From IMG/VR virus record IMGVR_UViG_2718218305_000006: a stretch of 64,000 nt of DNA. One strand, given 5' to 3'. The position numbers were made by a program, and so were the translations under genes. The notes under the pieces are model-generated. The model ran no database searches, was not told the origin of the DNA, and saw only the letters and a program-made list of their open reading frames with translations. Positions 2,489-46,038 of the stretch are shown here, piece after piece. How positions within the stretch are numbered: position 1 is the first letter of the stretch; every line of letters begins with the position of its first letter. Origin of the DNA: a virus. Lineage: Duplodnaviria; Heunggongvirae; Uroviricota; Caudoviricetes.

Positions 2489-2514
2489 CTCAATCTGTTA
2501 TCCGGGGCTATATT
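2485..2514 (+). promoter_or_regulatory. candidate late promoter pR' (TTGACT-N17-CTATAT)
   Basis: -35 TTGACT overlaps the Q stop codon; 17-bp spacer; -10 CTATAT/TATATT. Confidence 0.45.
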
Positions 2515-2577
2515 CCTCACGCGCCAGCAAAATCTGGCGTCGGGATTAGCACCCCGGATGTTTACGGAGCGATATGA

Positions 2578-2597
2578 GACGCGCCCGCGTCTTTTTT
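2578..2597 (+). terminator. rho-independent terminator (tR'-like)
   Basis: GACGCG-CC-CGCGTC hairpin followed by TTTTTT, about 65 nt downstream of the candidate pR'. Confidence 0.5.
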
Positions 2598-2761
2598 CAT
2601 ATCGTTTGCACAGTCACATTCGCGATTTATGGCGGGCTGTGTGGGGGAGCCGAAAGGCTCGCCGGTTTCCGTACCCGGTAGTGCTAACCCCGCACAGTTC
2701 GCCACCACGATGATTAGCACCTGACGGTGGCGATAATGTCCAAATGTACGGAGTTATCGTT

Positions 2762-3477: not shown

Positions 3478-3553
3478 GGCCCTTTAGCTCAGTGGTGAGA
3501 GCGAGCGACGCATAATCGCCAGGTCGCTGGTTCGAATCCAGTACAACGCGCCA
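3478..3553 (+). pseudogene. chimeric tRNA remnant (tRNA-Ile 5' part, tRNA-Arg 3' acceptor strand)
   Basis: 5' 56 nt near-identical to tRNA-Ile at 44708; 3' ACAACGCGCCA matches tRNA-Arg at 44884; acceptor strands cannot pair; position 33 is G instead of T. Confidence 0.5.
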
Positions 3554-3593: not shown

Positions 3594-3659
3594 AAATGTC
3601 TCACAATTCAGGCGGTTGACTGTTGTCTGGTTTGCGGGGAGTTTGTTAAAAGAAACTGG

Positions 3660-3765
3660 CATGGTGAATCCCCCTGTGCGGAGGGGCAATCAGTGAGTAG
3701 GTATATGGGATAATCGCGGATTCAGGTGCTGGTACTGAATTCACCGGGAGGCACCCGGCACCATG
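3660..3765 (+). other. conserved 106-nt structured element upstream of nanS-p (copy 1)
   Basis: Bounded by CATGGTG..CACCATG; internal CCCCTGTGCGGAGGGG hairpin; second copy at 45760..45865. Confidence 0.3.
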
Positions 3766-4032
3766 CAAGAAAAAGAATGTGCATGCAAACATGCCCCTCT
3801 CCGGAGGGGCATTTTTTATGGGTAAAAAATGCCCGAATGGGTTCGGGCAATAGCATGAGATACTGATATTGTTGTGTTGTTATCGTGTGGATTTTAACCA
3901 GGGTTTATCAGGCTGCGCAACTGCGTGGCCTTTTTTCATTTCTTGGGCTGTAGTCCCCGTGTGTCATTCAGGCTTCCGGACTACAGCCCACTCCATATCT
4001 GATTTAATACACTATCCCGGCCGGGAGGAATA

Positions 4033-28179: not shown

Positions 28180-28189
28180 TGGGGTGAAT

Positions 28190-29503
28190 ATGGCAGTAAA
28201 GATTTCAGGTGTACTGAAAGACGGCACAGGAAAACCGGTAGAGAACTGCACCATTCAACTGAAAGCCAGACGGACCAGCAGCACGGTGGTGGTGAACACG
28301 GTGGCCTCTGAAAATCCGGATGAAGCCGGTCGTTACAGCATGGACGTTGAGTACGGTCAGTACAGCGTCATTCTGTTGGTGGAGGGCTTCCCGCCGTCAC
28401 ATGCCGGGACCATCACCGTGTATGAAGATTCTCAACCCGGTACGCTGAATGATTTTCTCGGTGCCATGTCGGAGGATGACGTCCGGCCGGAGGCACTGCG
28501 CCGTTTTGAACTGATGGTGGAAGAGGTGGCGCGTCACGCTGAGGAGGCGAAGAAGAATGCCGGAGAGGCGGAGACGTCAGCGAGGAATGCCGGCATATCA
28601 GCCAGTCAGGCAGAAGAGAGCGCTGCAAATGCTGACACTTCAGCAGGGGATGCATCGGAGTCAGCCCGGCAGGCGGCAGAAAGTGCAGCCGCTGCAAAGC
28701 AGTCAGAGGAGGCGTCCTCGTCCTCGGCCTCTGCGGCCGCTCAAAAAGCCAGTGAGTCATCACAAAGTGCAGCAGAAGCTGAATTGTCAAGAAAGACGGC
28801 AGAAAGTGCAGCCGGTAATGCAGCCAGGGATGCAACGACCGCAGCAGAAAAAGCCCGGGAGTCAGCAGAAAGCGCACAGTCAGCGGAACAAAGCAGGATA
28901 GCGGCGGAAGAGGCCGTAAACCGAATCCCCACCGTGGTGGGGCCTCCCGGGCCAAAGGGGGAACAGGGTCCCGCGGGTCCTCAGGGGCCGAAGGGAGATA
29001 AAGGAGAGCGTGGCGACACCGGCCCGGCAGGGGCAACCGGTGAACGGGGGCCGGCAGGTGATGCTGGTCCGGCAGGCCCGCCGGGGCCGAAAGGTGACAG
29101 GGGAGAGCGGGGAGAGACCGGTCTGACGGGAAATGCAGGTCCACAGGGTCCAAAGGGAGATACCGGTGCGGCAGGCCCGGCAGGCCCACAGGGACCGAAA
29201 GGAGAAACAGGTGCGGCTGGCCCGGTGGGGGCGACCGGACCTCAGGGACCGAAGGGCGACCCGGGGGAGACGCAAATACGGTTCCGTCTGGGGCCGGGAA
29301 ACATTATTGAGACAAACAGCCATGGCTGGTTCCCGGATACAGATGGCGCACTCATCACCGGACTGACCTTTCTTGACCCCAAAGATGCCACACGGGTTCA
29401 GGGTTTTTTTCAGCATTTGCAGGTCAGGTTTGGTGACGGGCCGTGGCAGGATGTTAAGGGGCTGGATGAAGTGGGCAGTGATACAGGCAGAACAGGAGAA
29501 TGA
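28190..29503 (+). CDS. side tail fibre-like protein with collagen-like Gly-X-Y repeats
   Basis: Ala/Ser/Glu-rich coiled segment then long GPxGxxGxxG triplet run (about 28930..29280). Confidence 0.7.
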
Positions 29504-29814: not shown

Positions 29815-30140
29815 TGTTGCAATGTCCGGGGGATATTTGTTAAGTAGATTGTATTGTATGTAAAGGCAGAGCTCCGAATTTTACTGTTGTAAGTGGGCCT
29901 GGCGGGAATGGTATCGCCAGCATCATTGGCTTGGGTCCAGTAAAAAGAGACGCAGAAAGATGCACAATAGGCACTACGCGTCATGCATGGATTAGGTCGC
30001 TCATTATTTACACAGTACTGCTAAAAAATTATTAAGGAAAGCGCGGCACTTCGTATGTAAGAGCGTGTCGCGGTTGGCTGGTGAACTTTCGATAGTGCGA
30101 GTATTGAATGATTTCCAGCCGTTACCGATTTACGTGTTTA

Positions 30141-30347
30141 TTAGCGAACAAACCACTCGTCAGCAGACTCCCAGGTATCTTTCAGCGTCTCCTGAACAAA
30201 AGTTTTTGCAGAATCTTTATCGGCGGTGCGAGTAACTGAAAGGCCATCGTTGCTGGTGGATTTGATGATCACTTCTACATCGTCATAACGTTTACTGACA
30301 CGTCGCAGCATTTCTTGTTGCAGGGCAGGAACAGAACCTTTTGGCAT
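30141..30347 (-). CDS. DinI-like protein
   Basis: 68-aa product from an internal ATG; C-terminus ..[20 protein letters not shown] resembles the DinI family end (..ILQETWESADDWFV). Confidence 0.6.
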
Positions 30348-30560
30348 TTTGTTGATTTTGGCTGCGGGGTATCTGTGGGGCATATATGGGACATAAAAAG
30401 GCCTCAAATAAACAGCAAAATCGAGATTAGGGATTTTTAGAAAAAATACAACCATCTGAAAAAACTTAGAAAACACCCAAAAACCCACAGAATAGTAAAA
30501 AACATCTATGAATTATGGATTTCAAGAGTCATTCAATCTAACTAATTGATAAATAAAAAA

Positions 30561-31112
30561 TTAACTTTTCATCGCTTCGTTATGGGGCATGGTTGGGGCA
30601 AACTCGCTTAACTGTGTATTTAACAGCGTTACCTGCGCATTATTATTTTCTGACATCCATTTCCCGTACACCTGAAACACCATTTGCGCATCTGCATGGC
30701 CCATCTGGTTTGCAATGAATGCCGGGTTAGCTCCTGCTGTTAACGACCAGCAGGCATAAGTGTGTCTCGACTGATACGATTTGCGATGGCGGATTCCGGC
30801 ACGCTTTACCGCTGCGTCCCACATCTGCCTTATTGAGTCAACGGTAAAATGGTCGCCATAATTTTTTACTTTCGCTGACACTTCAGGTTGAAAAACAAAG
30901 GTACATTTTTGTTTCTCTGTTCTGCCGAATTCTCTGAGGTGAACATCGATGATATGCTCTTTGCTCAGTCTCGTTAGTGCCATCTGACTCCGGAGAGCGT
31001 CGATTGCGGGCTTAATAAGGTGAATCACACGATTGGTTCCCGCCTGTGTTTTTGGTACTGTAAAACGGTCTTTTGCCAGATTTCTTCTGATTATCATTCT
31101 GCCATTGCGCAA
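30561..31112 (-). pseudogene. int: tyrosine integrase remnant, C-terminal catalytic half only
   Basis: ..TVPKTQAGTNRVIHL..SRHTYACWSLTAGANPAFIANQMGHADAQMVFQVYGKWM carries K/H-R-H-Y box residues; in-frame stop 6 codons upstream of the start; arm- and core-binding domains absent. Confidence 0.7.
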
Positions 31113-32338
31113 GATGGTTGCGGTTTTTCTTCATCATTTTCTTCTTCTGTTTCCTGCTTAGCAGACAGTTCGCGGTTAACTTCTTCCAGGATATCTTTTT
31201 CCGGTGTATGTCGTGCAGCAGTGAGAGTTTCCTTGCTGGGGTTCTCGTGATCAGTCTCCGTTAAGTAGGCGTTGATATACCCCTGAAGGCGTCCCGGGTA
31301 GTGATAAAACTCAGGGTGAGCGCTCCGGATAAGTGCAAAAATAGCGGCGCGGGAATAGTCCAGAATACCCGGGGTTGCGCGAAGTGCTGCGGACCATTCT
31401 TTGAACGGACTTTCTCTTTTCAGGACGATTTCTTTTGCGCGACGATAAACGCTGCCCGGAATTTCATAAATATTAAAATCCATCGGAAGTGTGGCTGCTG
31501 CAATCTCCACATCCAGCGTATCGAAGGTGTGTACTAAATTCGGATTGCGATCGGTTTTGTTCCCGCCACCGGCATTTGCACCGGAAGCCGTACGGGTGAT
31601 ACGCGAAACACGATTTCCTTTCATCCACTCTTTTGTCAGCAGACCCCGATCAGTGTAGTCAGCGTCCAGGTATGCCTCGAAAAAAGCAGTTATCAGTCCC
31701 AGGTCTGAATTACCGGGATTAGGGAAAACTTTGTCAGTGTCGCGTACCAGTTTGTGAAGGTCGCGAATCTCCAGCGGGTCGAGCAGCTTTGTTTTGTGAG
31801 AAATGGCCAGGGCAGTAACAGCCGGCAGTTCTTCCGCCCGTGCTATATGTAATGCCTGAAGTTCTTCCCGTGCAACGTGCGTTACTGGTTTTTCGCTGCC
31901 GTGTTGCGCAAGCCAGCGAATGGGCAGCTCCTGACCAGAAACCGGCAGGAGCATATTCTCCTCAATCTCCGTCATGTCTTCGCCGTTGACGTTGGTATTG
32001 TCAGTACTGGCTGGTTTCTCCTGCACGGAGGGAGAGGGCGCGATAAATACCATTGTAATGCCATCTTCCCCGCCTTTTTCGTATCGGTTGCAGAATTCGG
32101 TATCAAACACGCCTTCAGGTGGAAGGTCATTCACAACGGGTAAATGGACGCGAACGGGTTTTTTAAAGTCGTCTTCATCATAATCGTTGTCATCCATTGC
32201 GGTAATGCAGCGGGAGATGGCAACAGATAATTTTTTTGCTGTAGTCCAGTAAAAACCACCTTTAATTCCCAGACGTTTTCTGACTTTGTCATTTTTTGCT
32301 TCGCAATATAGCGCAAATTCTTCTTTATCAGTGCTCAT
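31094..32338 (-). CDS. hypothetical acidic protein (414 aa), ydfE-like position in a Qin-type operon
   Basis: Intact 1245-nt ORF overlapping the integrase remnant by 19 nt in another frame; Asp/Glu-rich stretches; no motif recognised. Confidence 0.55.
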   Translation of the reverse strand: MSTDKEEFALYCEAKNDKVRKRLGIKGGFYWTTAKKLSVAISRCITAMDDNDYDEDDFKKPVRVHLPVVNDLPPEGVFDTEFCNRYEKGGEDGITMVFIAPSPSVQEKPASTDNTNVNGEDMTEIEENMLLPVSGQELPIRWLAQHGSEKPVTHVAREELQALHIARAEELPAVTALAISHKTKLLDPLEIRDLHKLVRDTDKVFPNPGNSDLGLITAFFEAYLDADYTDRGLLTKEWMKGNRVSRITRTASGANAGGGNKTDRNPNLVHTFDTLDVEIAAATLPMDFNIYEIPGSVYRRAKEIVLKRESPFKEWSAALRATPGILDYSRAAIFALIRSAHPEFYHYPGRLQGYINAYLTETDHENPSKETLTAARHTPEKDILEEVNRELSAKQETEEENDEEKPQPSCAMAE

Positions 32339-32430
32339 TGATAAACCTCATTACAGATTTAAGGGTGAACAAATCCCTGCCATTGCTGGCATTTTTAATC
32401 CGTTGGTATGGTGTTAATATGGCTGGAGGG

Positions 32431-32619
32431 TTATCCAGCCGGTGTTTCGTTATTCAGGTACAGCGATACTTTTTTTACCGGGAGGCATTCACCAGAAATT
32501 TTTTGCTCGTCTCTTGCCTGGAGGCAGGATTCTTTACTGGCATAAATTCCGGTAATCACATTCTGTGATTCACCCGTTATAAGAAAAACCGTCATCATCA
32601 GTGCAAATGCTGAAGTCAT
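32431..32619 (-). CDS. YdfD-like small protein with N-terminal hydrophobic segment
   Basis: 62 aa, MTSAFALMMTVFLITG..; ATGA overlap with dicB; position as ydfD in the Qin dicB operon. Confidence 0.5.
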   Translation of the reverse strand: MTSAFALMMTVFLITGESQNVITGIYASKESCLQARDEQKISGECLPVKKVSLYLNNETPAG

Positions 32620-32804
32620 TGACGTTCTCCGAAAATACCAAGTTCAAGAAGAGCAATTCGGGAAAGTATGGAATTATCATTGAGCAGATAAGGCTCATAT
32701 TTCCTCATGTTAATGGCATCTTCAGTAAACTCCCGGTTACTGAGCAGAACACCAATATCAAAACAACCTTCAGACGTATTAACGTTTGGTAATAACGTTT
32801 CCAT
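32616..32804 (-). CDS. dicB: cell division inhibitor DicB-like
   Basis: 62 aa, METLLPNVNTSEGCFDIGVLLSNREFTEDAIN.. matches recalled E. coli DicB N-terminal half; lies just downstream of DicF. Confidence 0.7.
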   Translation of the reverse strand: METLLPNVNTSEGCFDIGVLLSNREFTEDAINMRKYEPYLLNDNSILSRIALLELGIFGERQ

Positions 32805-32973
32805 TATCGCGTCCTCAACAATGAATTTTGTGATGCAGTGCCTGGTGCCTCCAGGTGACGTTAACCAGTTAACAATTAACGCCGGATACAGAGAATCCAC
32901 CCATAACACTGTTTTTGGTTTTAACTGTTCCGCGTGCGCTTAGCCGCATTCACCGCATCACAAAATTCACTTT

Positions 32974-33031
32974 AAAAAGGGCGGCAGAGCAGCCACGGAG
33001 TAAAACTGATACCGCCAAACGTCACCAGAAA
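32974..33031 (-). ncRNA. dicF: DicF small RNA
   Basis: Minus strand reads TTTCTGGTGACGTTTGGCGGTATCAGTTTTACTCCGTGGCTGCTCTGCCGCCCTTTTT, matching recalled DicF with its terminator hairpin. Confidence 0.7.
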
Positions 33032-33368
33032 ATTGATAACAGAGGGCGTTGCAGCGGGGTTGTCACTTAAGCGTATGGTCAACCTGACAACCCGGTGTCC
33101 TCAATGGGGAAGGAATAACCCCGCCATACTTACCGCCGCGCCATTTCGCGGAGTGCCACAACCGGAAGCGCACGTTCGAAGAAATCTAACGACAAGCCTT
33201 CTAAGGGAAAGAGCTTCGCCGTACGCTTTCGCGTTATGCACTGACTTTTCAGGGAAATATCCTTTCAGTAAACTGTCAGTACCGGATTCTTATCCGTGTC
33301 CGGCGCACGACCACACGTGACAGCGTGTTGGTCTCCATTTTTAACCCAGAACCTCAATGGAGGATAAA

Positions 33369-33578
33369 ATGCCAAACAAAAAAAGAAATCCGCTTATTGA
33401 AAAACAGATTGAATGCCTGGTAAATCAACTCAGGCAATCAGGGTTATTAAAAACTCATTCAGAGTTGAGGCTCACAGAATCAGCATTCGACGATAAATTA
33501 AATAATGTCCTTTATAATGGCATTATTGATTTTAATCGTTCTGTTGGTCGCCGCGGCCCTGCTGGTGTTTCCTTATAA
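33369..33578 (+). CDS. hypothetical small protein (69 aa), convergent with dicB operon
   Basis: GGAGG RBS 6 nt upstream of ATG; an overlapping hydrophobic 32-aa ORF (33517..33615) is an alternative. Confidence 0.3.
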   Translation: MPNKKRNPLIEKQIECLVNQLRQSGLLKTHSELRLTESAFDDKLNNVLYNGIIDFNRSVGRRGPAGVSL

Positions 33579-34229
33579 TTACCAGTCAATCCAGAGTGGA
33601 CCGTGTTCAGCGTAAATATAACTGTACACATCCAGATTATATTTGTGGTCTGTTAAGAACAGGCCGCAAATACATGCCGAAGCTTCCAGTGCAGCGGCTC
33701 TGTTACTGAATAACCATGTAGCAACATTCCAGCGTTTTTCTGCATCCCAGTCTTTCTCAAGGCCTGATACCATGAAGAAACCGTTAGTGTTGCCATCAAA
33801 TAATTCTGTTTCCAAATTTTTAAGCAATGCCTGATGGACTCTTGCCAGGTATTCCGCCGGAATTTCGCCACGAATTCTGATGAGATTGTCATAAACAAAC
33901 ATGTTCCCCGCATATGGCGATTTTTCTTTCTTGTTTTTTAAACCAGCATCATGAGCAAACTGATCAATTTCTTCTTCCGTTGGTTTCGTATTGATGTTTT
34001 GCGCTGTCGTTTCTGCAATTTTATTTGCCACACTCTCTGAGTCGTGTTTATTTATAGACGCACAGAAATACAATCCGGTAAACGCATCGCGCACATTACG
34101 AGCCATATTATCAGTGTCTTTTTTCGTTACCGATTCCAATTCAAGTTCGTTCAGACGATGACGAAGTGTGTGTGCTGCAATCTCCTGGATTGAAGGAGGT
34201 AAATCTTTAAATTCCATCGTCAACCTCAT
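33579..34229 (-). CDS. hypothetical protein (216 aa), second gene of the coupled pair beside cI
   Basis: ATG overlaps the stop of the upstream 77-aa gene (TGATG); no family recognised. Confidence 0.6.
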   Translation of the reverse strand: MRLTMEFKDLPPSIQEIAAHTLRHRLNELELESVTKKDTDNMARNVRDAFTGLYFCASINKHDSESVANKIAETTAQNINTKPTEEEIDQFAHDAGLKNKKEKSPYAGNMFVYDNLIRIRGEIPAEYLARVHQALLKNLETELFDGNTNGFFMVSGLEKDWDAEKRWNVATWLFSNRAAALEASACICGLFLTDHKYNLDVYSYIYAEHGPLWIDW

Positions 34230-34462
34230 CAGTCAGTGTTTCTGGCTAACCAGCGACGCGCGCCAGCTTCAGTTTTAAACGTTTTGCTTTTGGTATACGT
34301 CATCGCGGTGAACGTACCGTCCTGGTTGGGGAACACGCCACATACCAGAGATTCGTTGTTGCCAAGATTGAGCGTATCCATGTTGACCTCATTTCCCCTT
34401 AACGCCGGGGTAGCGGAACAAAAACCTGCTGCATAGTTATTAAAGTTGAACCCTGCCGTCAT
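34229..34462 (-). CDS. hypothetical protein (77 aa), first gene downstream of cI
   Basis: Same strand as cI, separated by a 211-bp gap; coupled to the 216-aa gene. Confidence 0.5.
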   Translation of the reverse strand: MTAGFNFNNYAAGFCSATPALRGNEVNMDTLNLGNNESLVCGVFPNQDGTFTAMTYTKSKTFKTEAGARRWLARNTD

Positions 34463-34673
34463 GTTCTTACGCCTCGGGCTGGCTACTTAACCCCTGACCA
34501 CTGCCTGGTAACTCGAAGTATTGCCCTGCATTCTGTGGGGCGGGGTGAGGGAATGAATGAAGTTTAGAAAAACGAACATTTAAGGTCAATGTTTTTTTAT
34601 CAAAACATTTTAAGCAGGCAGCTGTTACGCCATCACTACGATGGCATACAGTTAATCAAATAGATGAGGTTGG

Positions 34674-35312
34674 TTAAATATCTTGTTGAATTTTAAAGCA
34701 TACTCCCAATATGCAAGATAGATCATCCAGCATAATTGAAGGGTAGCGAGGATTCGTGGGGACTAAAAGAATATCCGGCCCTTCTATCTCCAGTTTGCGA
34801 ATGACAGGCGTTGTGGTCCCTTTGGGTAAGGCAAGGACAATATTTCCTGGTTGTACGATTCGATCGGGATCAACAAAAACTGTTGAACCATTTGGGATGG
34901 AAACTCCACCACCAGATGTCGACATACTGTCACTCTCTAGAACAACAGCAAAGGTATTGGCCGGGATTTCTCCGACAAGCTGCACACAAGAGGTTATTGA
35001 GGAATTTTTCATATAATCACTCCAGCTTGCTGCCTGCTGAAGTGATAGTAGCGGAACCGTTTTTATCGGCGGTAAAGATAGATCAAGCGAATCACCTGTA
35101 TTTAACTCTCCTCCATTAAGAAGCCAATTTTCGTTTACTTTCAATATCTTTGCCAGTGAACTTATGTAACGCGAGGACGGCGCTCCTCCACCGTTCATCC
35201 ATTGACTTACGGAGCCTTTTGATGCGCCAGTGGCATTGACAAGGTCTTTGCCTTTCAAGTTTAGCGCATGCATACGTTGGGTTATGCGTTCAGATATTGT
35301 TTGCTTGTTCAT
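34674..35312 (-). CDS. cI: CI-type repressor (HTH + S24 LexA-like peptidase domain)
   Basis: 212 aa; N-terminal HTH (..GASKGSVSQWMNG..) and C-terminal S24-like segment; divergent from cro-like gene. Confidence 0.85.
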   Translation of the reverse strand: MNKQTISERITQRMHALNLKGKDLVNATGASKGSVSQWMNGGGAPSSRYISSLAKILKVNENWLLNGGELNTGDSLDLSLPPIKTVPLLSLQQAASWSDYMKNSSITSCVQLVGEIPANTFAVVLESDSMSTSGGGVSIPNGSTVFVDPDRIVQPGNIVLALPKGTTTPVIRKLEIEGPDILLVPTNPRYPSIMLDDLSCILGVCFKIQQDI

Positions 35313-35403
35313 GTTTTGATTTTAAAACACAGATGGTTTTGTTTCTTGACTTTCTTTGGTTTTGATTATTAAACTTTTGGCGTTCAGTTTTATGGAGCGA
35401 CTC
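35313..35403. promoter_or_regulatory. immunity-region intergenic (divergent pRM/pR with operators, inferred)
   Basis: 91-bp AT-rich spacer between divergent cI and cro-like genes containing TTGACT and partial palindromes. Confidence 0.4.
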
Positions 35404-35646
35404 ATGAAAAAATCAGAAGTATTAGGCTATTTTGGCGGAGTTGTTAAAACAGCCGCCGCTCTAGGAACGTCAAAAACCACAGTCAGCATGTGGGGGGAAG
35501 ACGTTCCGTGGAAATGGGCGTTGCTAATTCAGGCAGTCACTGCCGGGGCGCTCAAATATGAGTTACACATACCGACGGTTGTCATTCCCGATTCTGATCA
35601 TAATCCGCCTTCTAACCAAGGGGGGATTCATGAAAATCAAGCATGA
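35404..35646 (+). CDS. cro: Cro-like DNA-binding protein
   Basis: 80 aa, GGAG RBS, HTH-like ..AAALGTSKTTVSMW..; first rightward gene opposite cI. Confidence 0.65.
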   Translation: MKKSEVLGYFGGVVKTAAALGTSKTTVSMWGEDVPWKWALLIQAVTAGALKYELHIPTVVIPDSDHNPPSNQGGIHENQA

Positions 35647-36055
35647 ACACATCCGCATGGCGATGAATGCCTGGGCGCGTCCTGATGGCGAAAAAGTTCC
35701 GGCAGCTGGAATAACCCAGGCTTATTTTGAGTTGGGTATGACGTTTCCTGAACTGTACGACGACAGCCATCCGGAAGCCCTGGCTCGCAATACCCAGAAA
35801 ATTTTCCGCTGGATAGAGAAAGACACCCCTGATGCAGTTGAAAAAATGCAGGCTCTGTTACCGGCGATCGAAAAGGCAATGCCGCCTCTGCTGGTGGCCC
35901 GTATGCGCAGTCACAGCTCTGAATATTACCGTGAGATCGTCGAACGGAGGGATCGGCTGGTGAAAGATGTGGATGATTTTGTCGCAGCGGCGATCGCCTG
36001 GGGCACCCTGACTAACAGTGGGGGTCAGCCTGGTAATGCTGTTGTCGTGCATTGA
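35630..36055 (+). CDS. CII-like regulator (YdaT family)
   Basis: 141 aa from an internal ATG; position after cro; MKIKHEHIRMAMNAWARPDGEK.. resembles Rac YdaT as recalled. Confidence 0.55.
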   Translation: MKIKHEHIRMAMNAWARPDGEKVPAAGITQAYFELGMTFPELYDDSHPEALARNTQKIFRWIEKDTPDAVEKMQALLPAIEKAMPPLLVARMRSHSSEYYREIVERRDRLVKDVDDFVAAAIAWGTLTNSGGQPGNAVVVH

Positions 36056-36123
36056 CCAACAATATTCATGCCGGATTTCTTCCGGATGTTCGAGGGTAAA
36101 GTTCGGTATCAGAAGAGGTGAGT

Positions 36124-37167
36124 ATGGCTAATGCCTGGCTCAGATTGTGGCATGACATGCCAAATGACCCCAAGTGGCGAACGATTGCCAGGGTATCAGG
36201 ACAGCCAATCGCAACAGTGATGGCAGTGTATATCCATCTTCTGGTGAGCGCGTCACGAAATGTCACGACATGTCACGGCGTGTCACTACGTGGTCACATT
36301 GATGTCACGACGGAAGATTTAGCAAGTGCGCTTGATGTGACGGAAGACGTAATTGATTCAATTTTGCATGCAATGCAGGGGCGGGTTCTGGATGGTGACC
36401 TTATTTCCGGATGGGAAAAACGTCAGGTGCTGAAAGAGGACAATGGTAACGTTTCGCAAACGGCAAAATCCCCGGCAGAGCGCAAGAGAGCGCAGCGGGA
36501 GCGGGAAAAGCTGCGGAAACATAATGCTGATTGTCACGATGAGTCACGACGTGTCACGCATCTGTCACGACAAGTCACGACAGATAAAGATACAGATAAA
36601 GATACAGATACAGAATTAAACCCCACACATAACGCGCGCGAGAGTATTCCGACCAGTGAGTCGAATGGTGCGCCGTTGCAGACAGCCGAACCTGAATACC
36701 TGGACGGCCTGAGCGAACCGATCGGGAAATTTTCGATGACTACTGTCTGGCAGCCGTCGCCGGATTTTCGACAACGGGCAGCAGTGTGGGGTATGGCTCT
36801 GCCTGAGCCGGAATTTACACCTGCTGAGCTTGCCGCATTCCGGGATTACTGGATGGCGGAGGGGAAGGTTTTCACGCAGGTTCAGTGGGAGCAGAAATTT
36901 GCCCGCCACGTGCAGCACGTCAGGGCACAGGTAAAACCAGTCAGCAAGGGGGGAAGCCATGCAGCATCAGGTGGCACGGCATCACGGGCAGTTCAGGAAA
37001 TCCGGGCTGCACGCGAACAGTGGGAACGTGACAACGGATTTATCAGCAACGGAAACGGCCTGGAAGCTGTGGGAGCTCATGGGGGAGGTGTATTCGAACC
37101 GCTGGACTCAGAAGAACGGGGCCGCACCTTCGAAGCTCTGGATTGCCCAGATTGGTGCGATGACTGA
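36124..37167 (+). CDS. replication initiation protein (O-like, DUF1376/YdaU-type) containing origin iterons
   Basis: MANAWLRLWHDMPNDPKWRTIA.. N-terminus; two clusters of GTCACG repeats inside the coding sequence. Confidence 0.7.
   Translation: MANAWLRLWHDMPNDPKWRTIARVSGQPIATVMAVYIHLLVSASRNVTTCHGVSLRGHIDVTTEDLASALDVTEDVIDSILHAMQGRVLDGDLISGWEKRQVLKEDNGNVSQTAKSPAERKRAQREREKLRKHNADCHDESRRVTHLSRQVTTDKDTDKDTDTELNPTHNARESIPTSESNGAPLQTAEPEYLDGLSEPIGKFSMTTVWQPSPDFRQRAAVWGMALPEPEFTPAELAAFRDYWMAEGKVFTQVQWEQKFARHVQHVRAQVKPVSKGGSHAASGGTASRAVQEIRAAREQWERDNGFISNGNGLEAVGAHGGGVFEPLDSEERGRTFEALDCPDWCDD
36250..36312. repeat. iteron cluster 1 (GTCACG repeats at about 10-bp spacing)
   Basis: cgtcacgaaatgtcacgacatgtcacggcgtgtcactacgtggtcacattgatgtcacgac. 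Confidence 0.55.
36532..36615. repeat. iteron cluster 2 plus GATAAAGATACA tandem repeats
   Basis: tgtcacgatgagtcacgacgtgtcacgcatctgtcacgacaagtcacgac then gataaagatacagataaagatacagataca (encodes DKDTDKDTDTE). Confidence 0.5.
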
Positions 37168-40118: not shown

Positions 40119-40408
40119 CCTGGCCTGAAGCATTCACAACGGTAGGAATTGCGATGGCGGTGGCGCTGGTGGTGTATTCGATTTGCCGCTGGGGATAAAA
40201 ACGGTTTGCGGGAAAAGGATAGTTAAGTAGAATTGCTGCGGGTGCTTGAGGCTATCTGCCTCGGGCATGAACACCAACGGCAGATAGAGAAAAGCCCCAG
40301 TTAACATTACGCGTCCTGCAAGACGCTTAACATTAATCTGAGGCTCAATCCATGCTGAACACATGTAGGTTAGCCTCTTACGTGCCGAAAGGCAAGGAGA
40401 AGCAGGCT

Positions 40409-40564
40409 ATGAAGCAGCAAAAGGCGATGTTAATCGCCCTGATCGTCATCTGTTTAACCGTCATAGTGACGGCACTGGTAACGAGGAAAGACCTCTGCGA
40501 GGTGCGAATCCGAACCGGTCAGACGGAGGTCGCTGTCTTCGTAGACTACGAATCTGAGAAGTAA
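40409..40564 (+). CDS. hok: Hok/Gef-family type I toxin (overlapping mok-like frame from 40352)
   Basis: MKQQKAMLIALIVICLTVIVTALVTRKDLCEVRIRTGQTEVAVFVDYESEK parallels Hok (..LTRKSLCEIRYRDG..EVAAFMAYE..). Confidence 0.7.
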   Translation: MKQQKAMLIALIVICLTVIVTALVTRKDLCEVRIRTGQTEVAVFVDYESEK

Positions 40565-44707: not shown

Positions 44708-44783
44708 GGCCCTTTAGCTCAGTGGTGAGAGCGAGCGACTCATAATCGCCAGGTCGCTGGTTCAAATCCAGCAAGGGCCACCA
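44708..44783 (+). tRNA. tRNA with CAT anticodon (ileZ-like tRNA-Ile2 or tRNA-Met)
   Basis: Cloverleaf: acceptor GGCCCTT/AAGGGCC, anticodon loop CTCATAA, T-loop GGTTCAAATCC, 3' CCA encoded. Confidence 0.8.
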
Positions 44784-44790
44784 TCACAAA

Positions 44791-44870
44791 CCGCCATTAG
44801 CTTATCAGGAAGAGCAGACGACACCATAACAGGGTTGTTGGTGCGGGGCCGGGTCCCCGATGGCGGTCCA
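44791..44870 (+). other. degenerate tRNA-like element between the two tRNAs
   Basis: Perfect 7-bp acceptor pairing CCGCCAT/ATGGCGG, D-stem and CGGGG/CCCCG T-stem, but 6-nt T-loop and no standard 7-nt anticodon loop. Confidence 0.25.
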
Positions 44871-44883
44871 TTATCGGTATTCT

Positions 44884-44960
44884 GCGTTGTTAGCTCAGCC
44901 GGACAGAGCAATTGCCTTCTAAGCAATCGGTCAGTGGTTCGACTCCACTACAACGCGCCA
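44884..44960 (+). tRNA. tRNA-Arg (anticodon TCT, argO-like)
   Basis: Acceptor GCGTTGT/ACAACGC, anticodon loop CTTCTAA, T-loop GGTTCGACTCC, CCA encoded. Confidence 0.85.
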
Positions 44961-45725: not shown

Positions 45726-45759
45726 TTTTTTTGTTTGCTGTTTATTAAAAACACTTCTG

Positions 45760-45865
45760 CATGGTGAATCCCCCTGTGCGGAGGGGCGATCAGCAACCAG
45801 GTATATGGGATAATCGCGGATTCAGGTGCTGATACTGAATTCACCGGGAGGCACCCGGCACCATG
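45760..45865 (+). other. conserved 106-nt structured element upstream of nanS-p (copy 2)
   Basis: Same termini CATGGTG..CACCATG and core as 3660..3765, with a cluster of substitutions in the middle. Confidence 0.3.
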
Positions 45866-46038
45866 CTTTGCCACAAAAGTGTTGTTTCTGTTTTTCTCAA
45901 ACTATCATCGTTATCCCTTTATTTCCGGCTGCGCATGGCGCGGCTTTTTTTTACGACCAGCCACTGGCAGATGGTCATCCTGTGATTTGATTCCGGTTCC
46001 GGCTTTTTAACTCTGTTCCTGTACACGGGAGAAATTCG

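Follow-up and report, generated by a model that had tools for sequence, protein, structure and literature searches.

The minus strand of the window (the entire 64,000-nt stretch of DNA analysed) carries, between a prophage repressor gene and the remnant of an integrase gene, a DicF small RNA followed by a dicB gene and a ydfD-like gene. The features of this region, listed from right to left, are:

35359..35374, degenerate third copy of the operator
35312..35329, second exact operator palindrome, between the repressor and cro
34674..35312, minus strand, prophage repressor of 212 aa with a DicA/434/P22-c2-like HTH and an S24 (LexA/lambda cI) peptidase domain
34590..34607, operator palindrome TGTTTT-N6-AAAACA abutting the promoter
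34589..34561, minus strand, candidate leftward promoter TTGACC-17-TAAACT (promoter scan)
34229..34462, minus strand, ydfA-like gene (DUF1391), which opens the operon (Pfam PF07151, 102 bits)
33579..34229, minus strand, 216-aa gene of unknown function (phrog_2151, 489.6 bits)
33040..33309, minus strand, conserved non-coding leader of the DicF precursor (K-12 identity, fold)
32979..33031, minus strand, DicF sRNA, 53-nt form (Rfam RF00039, K-12 identity)
32820..32971, minus strand, structured dicF-dicB spacer (predicted fold, STnc100-like)
32616..32804, minus strand, dicB, 62 aa, homologue of the MinC-dependent division inhibitor (Pfam PF05358, NCBIfam NF049927)
32431..32619, minus strand, ydfD-like gene (DUF1482), 62 aa (Pfam PF07358, phrog_1092)
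32378..32391, minus strand, small hairpin TGCCAGCAATGGCA between ydfD and recE' (terminator-like match)
31094..32338, minus strand, recE' remnant, coding for the N-terminal half of exodeoxyribonuclease VIII; the nuclease domain is missing
30561..31112, minus strand, int' remnant, C-terminal part of a tyrosine integrase

Using Rfam, we found that model RF00039 matches 33030..32979 along its full length (model positions 1-52 of 52), with 75.0 bits against a gathering score of 48 and an E-value of 1e-14 over the whole window. The 53-nt form known from K-12 corresponds to 33031..32979 and is followed by TTTTT at 32978..32974; this run and the GC stem GGCGG.../...CCGCC make up an intrinsic terminator, according to both the terminator scan and the predicted fold. 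Of the 53 nucleotides of this form, 52 are identical to K-12 dicF, and the original prediction of a near-exact DicF with its terminator holds at the position given. The sole change, A39G (window position 32993), replaces an inner-stem U-A pair by U-G, and the predicted fold is the same in both alleles (-15.4 kcal/mol in the window versus -15.9 kcal/mol in K-12). The two alleles give one and the same predicted DicF-ftsZ duplex, in which position 39 stays unpaired inside an interior loop, and the substitution is predicted to be neutral for this duplex. The duplex energy, -38.5 kcal/mol for the O157 and K-12 alleles alike, is no better than that of shuffled sRNAs (-36.8 +/- 4.3) and is therefore uninformative on DicF targeting. 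Both target-pairing sequences, 5' and 3', are as in the characterised K-12 RNA. DicF carries no annotation in the RefSeq records examined.

The two ORFs downstream of DicF proved to be divergent alleles of the proteins that had been proposed for them, DicB and an overlapping YdfD. The dicB ORF starts with ATG, 8 nt downstream of a GAGGA, and its product matches the Pfam DicB family PF05358 (125.5 bits, cutoff 27) and the NCBIfam CellDivInhibDicB model NF049927 (114.2 bits, cutoff 100), in each case over positions 1-62 of 62; PGAP annotates it as dicB (WP_000449175.1). It shares 39 of 62 residues (63%) with K-12 DicB, and residues 36-62 diverge from the K-12 protein. The N-terminal segment required for DicB activity (the first ~13 residues, L5) is intact, reading METLLPNVNTSEG in the window versus MKTLLPNVNTSEG in K-12, with L5 kept and a K2E change. 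In published mutants of position 2 (K2A, K2G and K2R), the residue type there was not critical, and K-12 DicB lacking 12-20 C-terminal residues showed weakened activity (PMC4967827).

The start of the ydfD-like gene overlaps the dicB stop as ATGA, an arrangement that predicts translational coupling to dicB. Its product (RefSeq WP_000199475.1, DUF1482) matches Pfam PF07358 with 56.3 bits (cutoff 25) and phrog_1092 with 116.5 bits, while no NCBIfam model matched this ORF; 27 of its 62 residues (44%) are identical to K-12 YdfD. Both cysteines, C32 and C45, which have been described as conserved in YdfD (PMC8835842), align with K-12, and the hydrophobic N-terminal segment is present (MTSAFALMMTVFLITG versus MNSAFVLVLTVFLVSG). 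The protein is one residue shorter than K-12 YdfD at the C-terminus; in K-12 YdfD, losing one terminal residue abolishes lysis (PMC8835842). Beyond the gene, the hairpin at 32378..32391 is identical in K-12, for which a transcript ending after ydfD has been reported (PMC10448788), and it possibly marks the end of the ydfA-to-ydfD transcript.

The sequence further downstream amends the earlier picture of the operon. The recE' product matches NCBIfam NF007259 at positions 1-409 of 877, scoring 619.6 bits where a full-length match needs 1269, as well as phrog_607 (positions 1-402 of 883) and Pfam Exonuc_VIII; the RecE assignment is based on these profile matches, and PGAP records a RecE pseudogene lacking its C-terminus. 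The int' product covers positions 52-165 of 172 of the Pfam Phage_integrase profile and 106-253 of 301 of phrog_216, and is recorded by PGAP as lacking its N-terminus. Among the minus-strand ORFs from the repressor to int, comprising the annotated genes and seven small ORFs, we found no homologue of N, Xis or Bet/RecT. Thus, the scanned ORFs include none of the genes that define a lambda-type pL operon (N, Exo/Bet and Xis); a truncated RecE of the Rac type is their sole recombination gene. The original prediction that exo/bet, xis and N are all missing consequently stands, among the ORFs scanned, for N, Xis and Bet/RecT and fails for the exonuclease, of which 409 of 877 model positions remain.

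Because recE' lies directly downstream of the module, and given the gene order in K-12 and in prophage PPompW, a more intact relative found in records of Stx2a phages (Stx2_14040 and others), the dicB module is placed ahead of a recombination gene of the Rac type, both belonging to one leftward operon. The proposal that the module takes the place of a recombination operon is thus not borne out. PPompW has the order dicA - ydfC - [dicF] - dicB - DUF1482 - exonuclease - xisE - intE. It resembles the window in the leader, DicF, the spacer, dicB and the DUF1482 gene, which are 93% identical over 880 nt, and it carries the window's DicB and YdfD alleles; it differs in having a DicA-type repressor and ydfC, as well as xisE, intE and a near-full-length, though frameshifted, exonuclease in its downstream part. 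These downstream genes represent what the window has lost: the missing xis and nuclease domain reflect a deletion that also truncated int, and not another type of operon. Comparing the window's recE' and int' with the exonuclease, xis and int of PPompW by blastn revealed no nucleotide similarity beyond 32344, so the extent of the deletion cannot be mapped in that way.

At the other end of the operon, residues 13-204 of the repressor align with full-length lambda cI (3bdn), including the dyad Ser (ESDSM) and Lys (IRKL). Pfam Peptidase_S24 scores 48.5 bits and HTH_3 falls below threshold, while the NCBIfam DicA model covers residues 1-71. The predicted scissile site is Ala-Ala instead of the Ala-Gly of lambda cI, which leaves SOS inducibility uncertain. 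RefSeq calls this repressor as a 112-aa fragment; the 212-aa cI-like ORF is intact. Exact copies of the operator palindrome occur only twice in the 64 kb, at 34590..34607 and 35312..35329. The candidate promoter with its abutting operator, 34561..34607, is the equivalent of dicBp. The first gene behind it corresponds to K-12 ydfA, which is likewise annotated DUF1391, and has its PGAP start at 34381. The 216-aa gene that follows matched no Pfam or NCBIfam model.

The RNA between these genes and dicB is highly conserved. A block at 32700..33309, extending from 280 nt upstream of DicF to about codon 35 of dicB, is 93% identical to K-12, whereas the genes on either side differ. Folding of 33330..32780 gives a structure more stable than those of shuffled sequences (z = -4.9), and one predicted helix, 33137-33118 :: 33001-32980, pairs part of the leader with the 3' half of DicF. 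In K-12, RNase III cuts upstream to give a 190-nt DicF species (PMC10448788). With permissive E-values over 32300..34700, Rfam returned no match for the leader upstream of DicF; matches to ceN53, tsr32 and the L2 leader in this interval had E-values of about 1 and were dismissed as chance. The small minus-strand ORFs in the leader and at the promoter, which had either no match or PHROG 'unknown function' matches, were rejected as genes and treated as non-coding.

In the spacer, a predicted 21-bp helix (32971-32951 :: 32840-32820) closes around three hairpins. The published 72-nt DicF consists of the 53-nt form plus 19 nt (PMC9438474); its 3' end maps onto the 5' strand of this helix, which sits where the published RNase III site maps (PMC9438474, PMC10448788). 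The modelled structure makes the spacer a probable RNase III substrate. STnc100 (Rfam RF02076) matched the spacer with 34.7 bits (E 2.8e-5), below the gathering score of 47, and the shared fold shows compensatory changes in 13 of 30 pairs, with 93.8% of cells pairing versus 35-45% in slid controls. On the basis of these compensatory changes and the sub-threshold score, the spacer resembles STnc100 and is not a qualifying member of that family.

Comparison with the K-12 Qin operon (ydfABC-dicF-dicB-ydfD-ydfE) showed that the repressor, promoter, DUF1391 gene, leader, DicF, dicB, ydfD, exonuclease remnant and int remnant are shared, in the same orientation and on the same strand, with the same ATGA coupling of dicB and ydfD. 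The truncated recE-like exonuclease also has its counterpart in Qin, where it is annotated as an 'exonuclease' pseudogene. A Qin-type cell-division-inhibition module made up of DicF, dicB and a ydfD-like gene was therefore correctly recognized, the gene order matching K-12 Qin from the repressor to the int remnant. The differences lie in the individual parts. The window repressor has 212 aa and an S24 domain, whereas DicA is described by a 135-position HTH-only model; the slot of ydfB/ydfC is occupied by the phrog_2151 gene, with a 73-aa ORF on the opposite strand; DicB residues 36-62 and much of YdfD diverge; and the exonuclease remnant is free of IS2. Thus, neither the DicA-type repressor that characterizes Qin (HTH only, relieved by an antirepressor) nor ydfB/ydfC is found in the window.

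Copies of the same module lie in prophages of E. coli O157:H7. The window differs from strain Z885 by a single mismatch in 6.1 kb. The 1.2 kb around the module is 100% identical to strain TR01, where it occurs in 7 places, although outside the module the window differs from TR01 and Z885 is closer. Matches to this 1.2 kb were found in 4743 of 5426 complete E. coli genomes, at a median of 2 places per genome, and at least 80% of its length is present in 935 genomes of that set. Multiple dicBF copies have been described in the O157 Sakai and EDL933 prophages CP-933O/M/P (PMC5069750), and a review reports four dicF copies in EHEC strains, with roles in pchA and stx2 regulation (PMC7873438). The window represents one of these O157:H7 copies (CP-933O/M/P of EDL933; Sakai Sp prophages): its module shows no differences from them, and the same RefSeq proteins are annotated (WP_000449175.1 for DicB, WP_000199475.1 for DUF1482). 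Other O157 strains have nleC or a nleG7/IS block just beyond the prophage end, which is absent from the window's strain.

We conclude with high confidence that a defective lambdoid E. coli O157:H7 prophage carries, at this locus, a copy of the dicBF early-left operon. What was observed is which parts are present, that they are intact, how they are ordered and how far they are conserved, along with the operator, promoter and RNA structures. This explanation is preferred because the scores of DicF, DicB and DUF1482 exceed curated thresholds, order and sequence are conserved, the ORFs are intact, a promoter-like site is present, the exact operator palindrome recurs in the cI/cro region and the precursor is strongly structured.

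For the expression, processing and activity of these alleles, we infer the following course. Leftward transcription would start at the repressor-controlled promoter beside the cI-like gene and cross the ydfA-like gene, the 216-aa gene and then the long structured leader. A fraction of it would terminate at the DicF terminator, and RNase E together with RNase III would trim the precursor to 53-nt DicF and longer forms, while read-through transcripts would deliver dicB and the coupled ydfD-like gene. By analogy with K-12 and EHEC, DicF with Hfq would pair with the ftsZ ribosome-binding site, xylR, pykA and manX, and in EHEC with pchA, thereby lowering FtsZ and retuning metabolism and virulence genes. 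As in K-12, DicB may bind MinC and bring it to the septal ring, so that division is blocked, and the YdfD homologue may act as a small lysis protein, the K-12 protein working through IspG.

Points against this explanation are the defective state of the prophage, in which int and recE are truncated, and the divergence of DicB 36-62 and most of YdfD from the tested K-12 proteins. Together with the absence of xis, the non-canonical cleavage site of the repressor and the presence of several further copies per O157 genome (7 places in TR01), the truncations and the divergence of YdfD and of the C-terminal half of DicB would also suit a silent relic, that is, a copy which is never derepressed or whose proteins are inactive, and which adds nothing beyond the other dicF copies. 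We consider this very unlikely: DicF, DicB and DUF1482 are intact and full-length against their family models, neither the promoter nor the operators are damaged, many O157 isolates carry the sequence in identical or near-identical form (at least 80% of the 1.2 kb in 935 genomes), and K-12 dicBF, which also resides in a defective prophage, shows expression in stationary phase and in part of the cell population.

A different view grants that the proteins are active and places their main selected role in superinfection protection, with DicB blocking ManYZ-dependent DNA entry, and in virulence and metabolic tuning by DicF. K-12 DicB is reported to guard against lambda-like phages via ManYZ (PMC6832061), DicF acts in EHEC as an activator of pchA and a repressor of stx2A (PMC7873438), and the distinct C-terminal allele of DicB could change its choice of partner. 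Such a role is compatible with the dicBF operon explanation and does not exclude it, and conservation covers the N-terminal DicB segment on which division inhibition and MinC binding depend; as the main selected role, we regard it as unlikely.

As dicBF copies in O157:H7 prophages have already been published, the locus is known and ordinary, and the mechanisms of DicF, DicB and YdfD have been described experimentally in K-12 or EHEC, which leaves little discovery value. Its use for annotation lies in DicF, the full 212-aa repressor and the recE remnant, and the allele differences (the cI-like repressor with its peptidase domain, the DicB C-terminus and YdfD) bear on the regulation of the several dicF copies in EHEC.

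The non-coding RNA reaches beyond dicBF operons. The leader block 33162..33040 also occurs in Stx2c phages, in cdtI and in the leader of P1 ban, and the spacer fold resembles the P1/P7 ban leader too. Shigella phage POCJ13 and phiSTEC1589-Stx1c share the same spacer RNA and have a DicF-like terminator hairpin in the same leftward-operon position; unlike in the window, the 5' arm of DicF is missing from this hairpin RNA, whose score against the DicF model stays under the threshold (35.6 bits in phiSTEC1589, no match in POCJ13), and the next gene codes for an FtsZ inhibitor of the KilR type (NCBIfam NF008465, 155 bits, cutoff 92) instead of DicB. The same RNA thus precedes unrelated division inhibitors, DicB or KilR, across phages. 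A tentative reading, which we hold to be somewhat less likely than not, is that the non-coding part of the locus is a mobile, modular RNA cassette and not just a spacer. Its three parts would be a leader of ~120 nt, a terminator-hairpin sRNA (DicF or a variant) and a three-hairpin element of ~150 nt; the last, with a long RNase III-type helix predicted to close it, resembles in fold the STnc100/PasD sRNAs and the P1/P7 ban leader. If true, this would point to a shared device for RNA processing through which the expression of toxic genes is gated. The fold shared with STnc100 and P1/P7 ban, and the exchange of DicB for KilR behind the same RNA, provide modest leads for the evolution of phage sRNAs.

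By every sequence criterion tested, the minus-strand module at 33031..32431 belongs to DicF, DicB and DUF1482/YdfD. This module, already known, is part of a Qin-like operon in an O157:H7 prophage. The original prediction of a DicF sRNA followed by dicB-like and ydfD-like genes was right to the exact coordinates, with Rfam, Pfam and NCBIfam scores all above their cutoffs and none close to chance level.

Features of the operon, its control region and its downstream remnants (window coordinates)
35312..35329, exact operator copy (TGTTTT-N6-AAAACA) in the gap between repressor and cro
35312..34674, minus, repressor, 212 aa; N-terminus like DicA, 434 cI and P22 c2, C-terminus an S24 peptidase domain
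34590..34607, exact operator copy at the promoter, abutting the -35 box
34589..34561, minus, promoter-like site, TTGACC-17-TAAACT
34462..34229, minus, ydfA-like DUF1391 gene (Pfam)
34229..33579, minus, 216-aa gene of unknown function (phrog_2151), in place of ydfB/ydfC
about 550 nt, minus, non-coding leader between the 216-aa gene and DicF
33031..32431, minus, DicF, spacer, dicB and ydfD (profile matches), comprising the next three
33030..32979, minus, DicF sRNA (Rfam RF00039, 75.0 bits against a gathering score of 48, E 1e-14, full model)
32804..32616, minus, dicB, 62 aa, ATG start with GAGGA upstream
32619..32431, minus, ydfD-like gene (Pfam DUF1482, 56.3 bits, cutoff 25; phrog_1092 match)
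32391..32378, minus, small conserved hairpin downstream of ydfD
32338..31094, minus, recE remnant (RecE model, phrog_607)
31112..30561, minus, int remnant downstream of the recE remnant

Searching the entire 64-kb window with Rfam at curated thresholds returned a single DicF. From the sequence, the 53-nt form of K-12 maps to 33031..32979, with the terminator U-run following at 32978..32974. The dicB product matches the DicB models of Pfam (entire length, 125.5 bits, cutoff 27) and NCBIfam (114.2 bits, cutoff 100), and an ATGA overlap joins the end of dicB to the start of the ydfD-like gene. In RefSeq, the dicB product WP_000449175.1 is named 'cell division inhibition protein DicB' and that of the ydfD-like gene, WP_000199475.1, 'DUF1482 family protein'; DicF is without annotation in the RefSeq records of the region.

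We retrieved the K-12 Qin region and aligned it to the window. Positions 33309..32700, which begin about 280 nt before DicF and end around codon 35 of dicB, are 93% identical to K-12, with an almost identical dicF-dicB spacer, and similarity then collapses within dicB. Relative to K-12, DicF differs by one base, DicB is identical at 39/62 residues (near-same over residues 1-35, divergent over 36-62) and the YdfD homologue at 27/62. The DicB N-terminal segment and L5, reported to be important (PMC4967827), are present in the window allele, as are both conserved YdfD cysteines, likewise reported to be important (PMC8835842). The divergent C-terminal parts of both are not dispensable in the K-12 proteins. 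The DicF substitution, A39G at 32993, changes an inner-stem U-A pair of the Rfam structure to U-G. Both alleles share the same predicted fold (-15.4 versus -15.9 kcal/mol) and an identical predicted duplex with ftsZ, in which position 39 is unpaired; the energy of this duplex is not better than that of shuffled RNAs, so the test serves only as a neutrality check of A39G.

RNA from 33330 to 32780 folds far better than shuffled versions (z = -4.9). Two helices are predicted, and both fit the K-12 processing data: in one, the 3' half of DicF pairs with 33137-33118 of the leader, and the other is a perfect 21-bp helix between 32971-32951 and 32840-32820. The RNase III cut reported to give a 72-nt DicF (53 + 19 nt; PMC9438474) falls within the 21-bp helix, and the 190-nt DicF species of K-12 (PMC10448788) starts in the leader.

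The ORF after ydfD matches the exodeoxyribonuclease VIII (RecE) model at positions 1-409 of 877 and phrog_607 at 1-402/883, and PGAP calls it a RecE pseudogene without its C-terminus. Thus, the earlier reading that no exo gene was present was not borne out, although among the ORFs scanned N, Xis and Bet are indeed absent, as is a RecT homologue. K-12 Qin carries the same kind of recE remnant. The more intact prophage PPompW has the same DicB and YdfD alleles as the window (93% identity over 880 nt), arranged as dicB - DUF1482 - exonuclease - xisE - intE. Together, the profile match, the Qin remnant and the PPompW order place the dicB module and a Rac-type recombination gene in a single operon, with the module upstream. 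A deletion has removed recE's nuclease half from the window, along with xis and the 5' portion of int. At the recE'/int' junction (31105..31153), six single bases (five T, one C) present in the window and in O157:H7 strain Z885 are absent from strain TR01, and in TR01 PGAP treats the integrase remnant as frameshifted. The leftward operon also contains an opposite-strand ORF of 73 aa (33357..33578, plus; phrog_4274, unknown function; 'hypothetical protein' in PGAP), located after the 216-aa gene and before the DicF leader, and a promoter-like site is present at 33341..33370 (plus).

Compared with Qin, the window module differs in repressor type, upstream genes and the alleles of both proteins. 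The repressor aligns with full-length lambda cI over residues 13-204, including the HTH and the catalytic Ser and Lys. DicA of Qin, in contrast, has no peptidase domain; this copy of dicBF may therefore respond to DNA damage, although this is uncertain because the predicted autocleavage site reads Ala-Ala at the lambda Ala-Gly position. In O157 genomes with identical DNA, RefSeq/PGAP calls only the C-terminal 112 aa of the repressor ('LexA family protein').

All parts of the module are intact, conserved and in canonical order, and a repressor-type operator lies at the promoter-like site, its exact palindrome occurring only twice in the 64 kb. [quoted passage not shown] DicF with Hfq would then repress ftsZ and metabolic mRNAs and, in EHEC, activate pchA. 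Read-through would produce two proteins: DicB, which would bring MinC to the division ring, and a homologue of YdfD, in K-12 a lysis protein acting on IspG.

The only part of these findings that might be new concerns a possible RNA cassette. The dicF-dicB spacer (32820..32971, minus) gives a sub-threshold match to Rfam STnc100 (34.7 bits versus 47, E 2.8e-5), of which the window holds two full copies (3630..3823 and 45730..45902, both plus). The same core, again below threshold, occurs in the ban-operon leaders of P7 (L005 1501-1616, 43 bits) and P1 (L006 2844-2964, 37.8 bits). All five sequences share a fold of three hairpins closed by a long helix. Its consensus has 30 pairs, 13 with compensatory changes, and 93.8% of cells pair as against 35-45% with slid partners, in a sample of five sequences from two or three lineages whose structure was derived from the same alignment; this covariation is suggestive of a shared fold, not proof. 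A 2026 preprint links STnc100 to PasD sRNAs and leaves DicF unmentioned.

Directly upstream of DicF lies a leader block of about 120 nt (33162..33040, minus) that matches no Rfam family. Further copies of it occur in Stx2c phages, cdtI, Ayreon and others (88.6%), in Salmonella phage F1055, and in the P1 ban leader (78.6%; L006 1501-1595), with additional copies at L007 2501-2623 and L009 401-520. Each copy is followed by a different terminator hairpin, and compensatory changes include GUUGUCA/UGACAAC versus GUUGCCA/UGGCAAC. In Shigella phage POCJ13 (L010 680-1094) and phage phiSTEC1589-Stx1c (L011 770-1224), the gene that follows a DicF-like hairpin and this spacer RNA encodes not DicB but a KilR-type inhibitor of FtsZ (NCBIfam NF008465, 155 bits), which is mis-annotated in phiSTEC1589 as 'cell division protein FtsZ'.

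E. coli O157:H7 strain TR01 matches the 1.2 kb surrounding the module at 100% identity, and 30100..36200 differs from strain Z885 by a single base. Among 5426 complete E. coli genomes, 4743 matched the 1.2 kb (median 2 places per genome, maximum 10), with at least 80% of it covered in 935. EHEC strains are reported to carry four dicF copies acting on pchA and stx2A (review, PMC7873438).

Elsewhere in the window, about 280 bp (29842..30126) separate the tail-fibre end of the first prophage from the DinI/int' end of the second, whereas this junction in TR01 and Z885 holds nleG7 with IS elements (5.8 kb) or nleC (1.4 kb). A long stretch of the tail-fibre protein (28184..29503, plus) consists of collagen-like G-x-x repeats. 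Further Rfam matches at curated thresholds were a c4-a1b1/isrK/C4 antisense cluster (2508..2709), a weak tRNA-like match (3484..3543), an AgvB sRNA abutting STnc100 (3824..3885, minus), sok by a Hok gene (40240..40414) and two tRNAs (44708..44957). These tRNAs are followed by a TerB-like ORF and by the second STnc100, an arrangement resembling the P7 ban-operon leader, which also has tRNAs, terB and an STnc100-like element but with the element upstream of terB.
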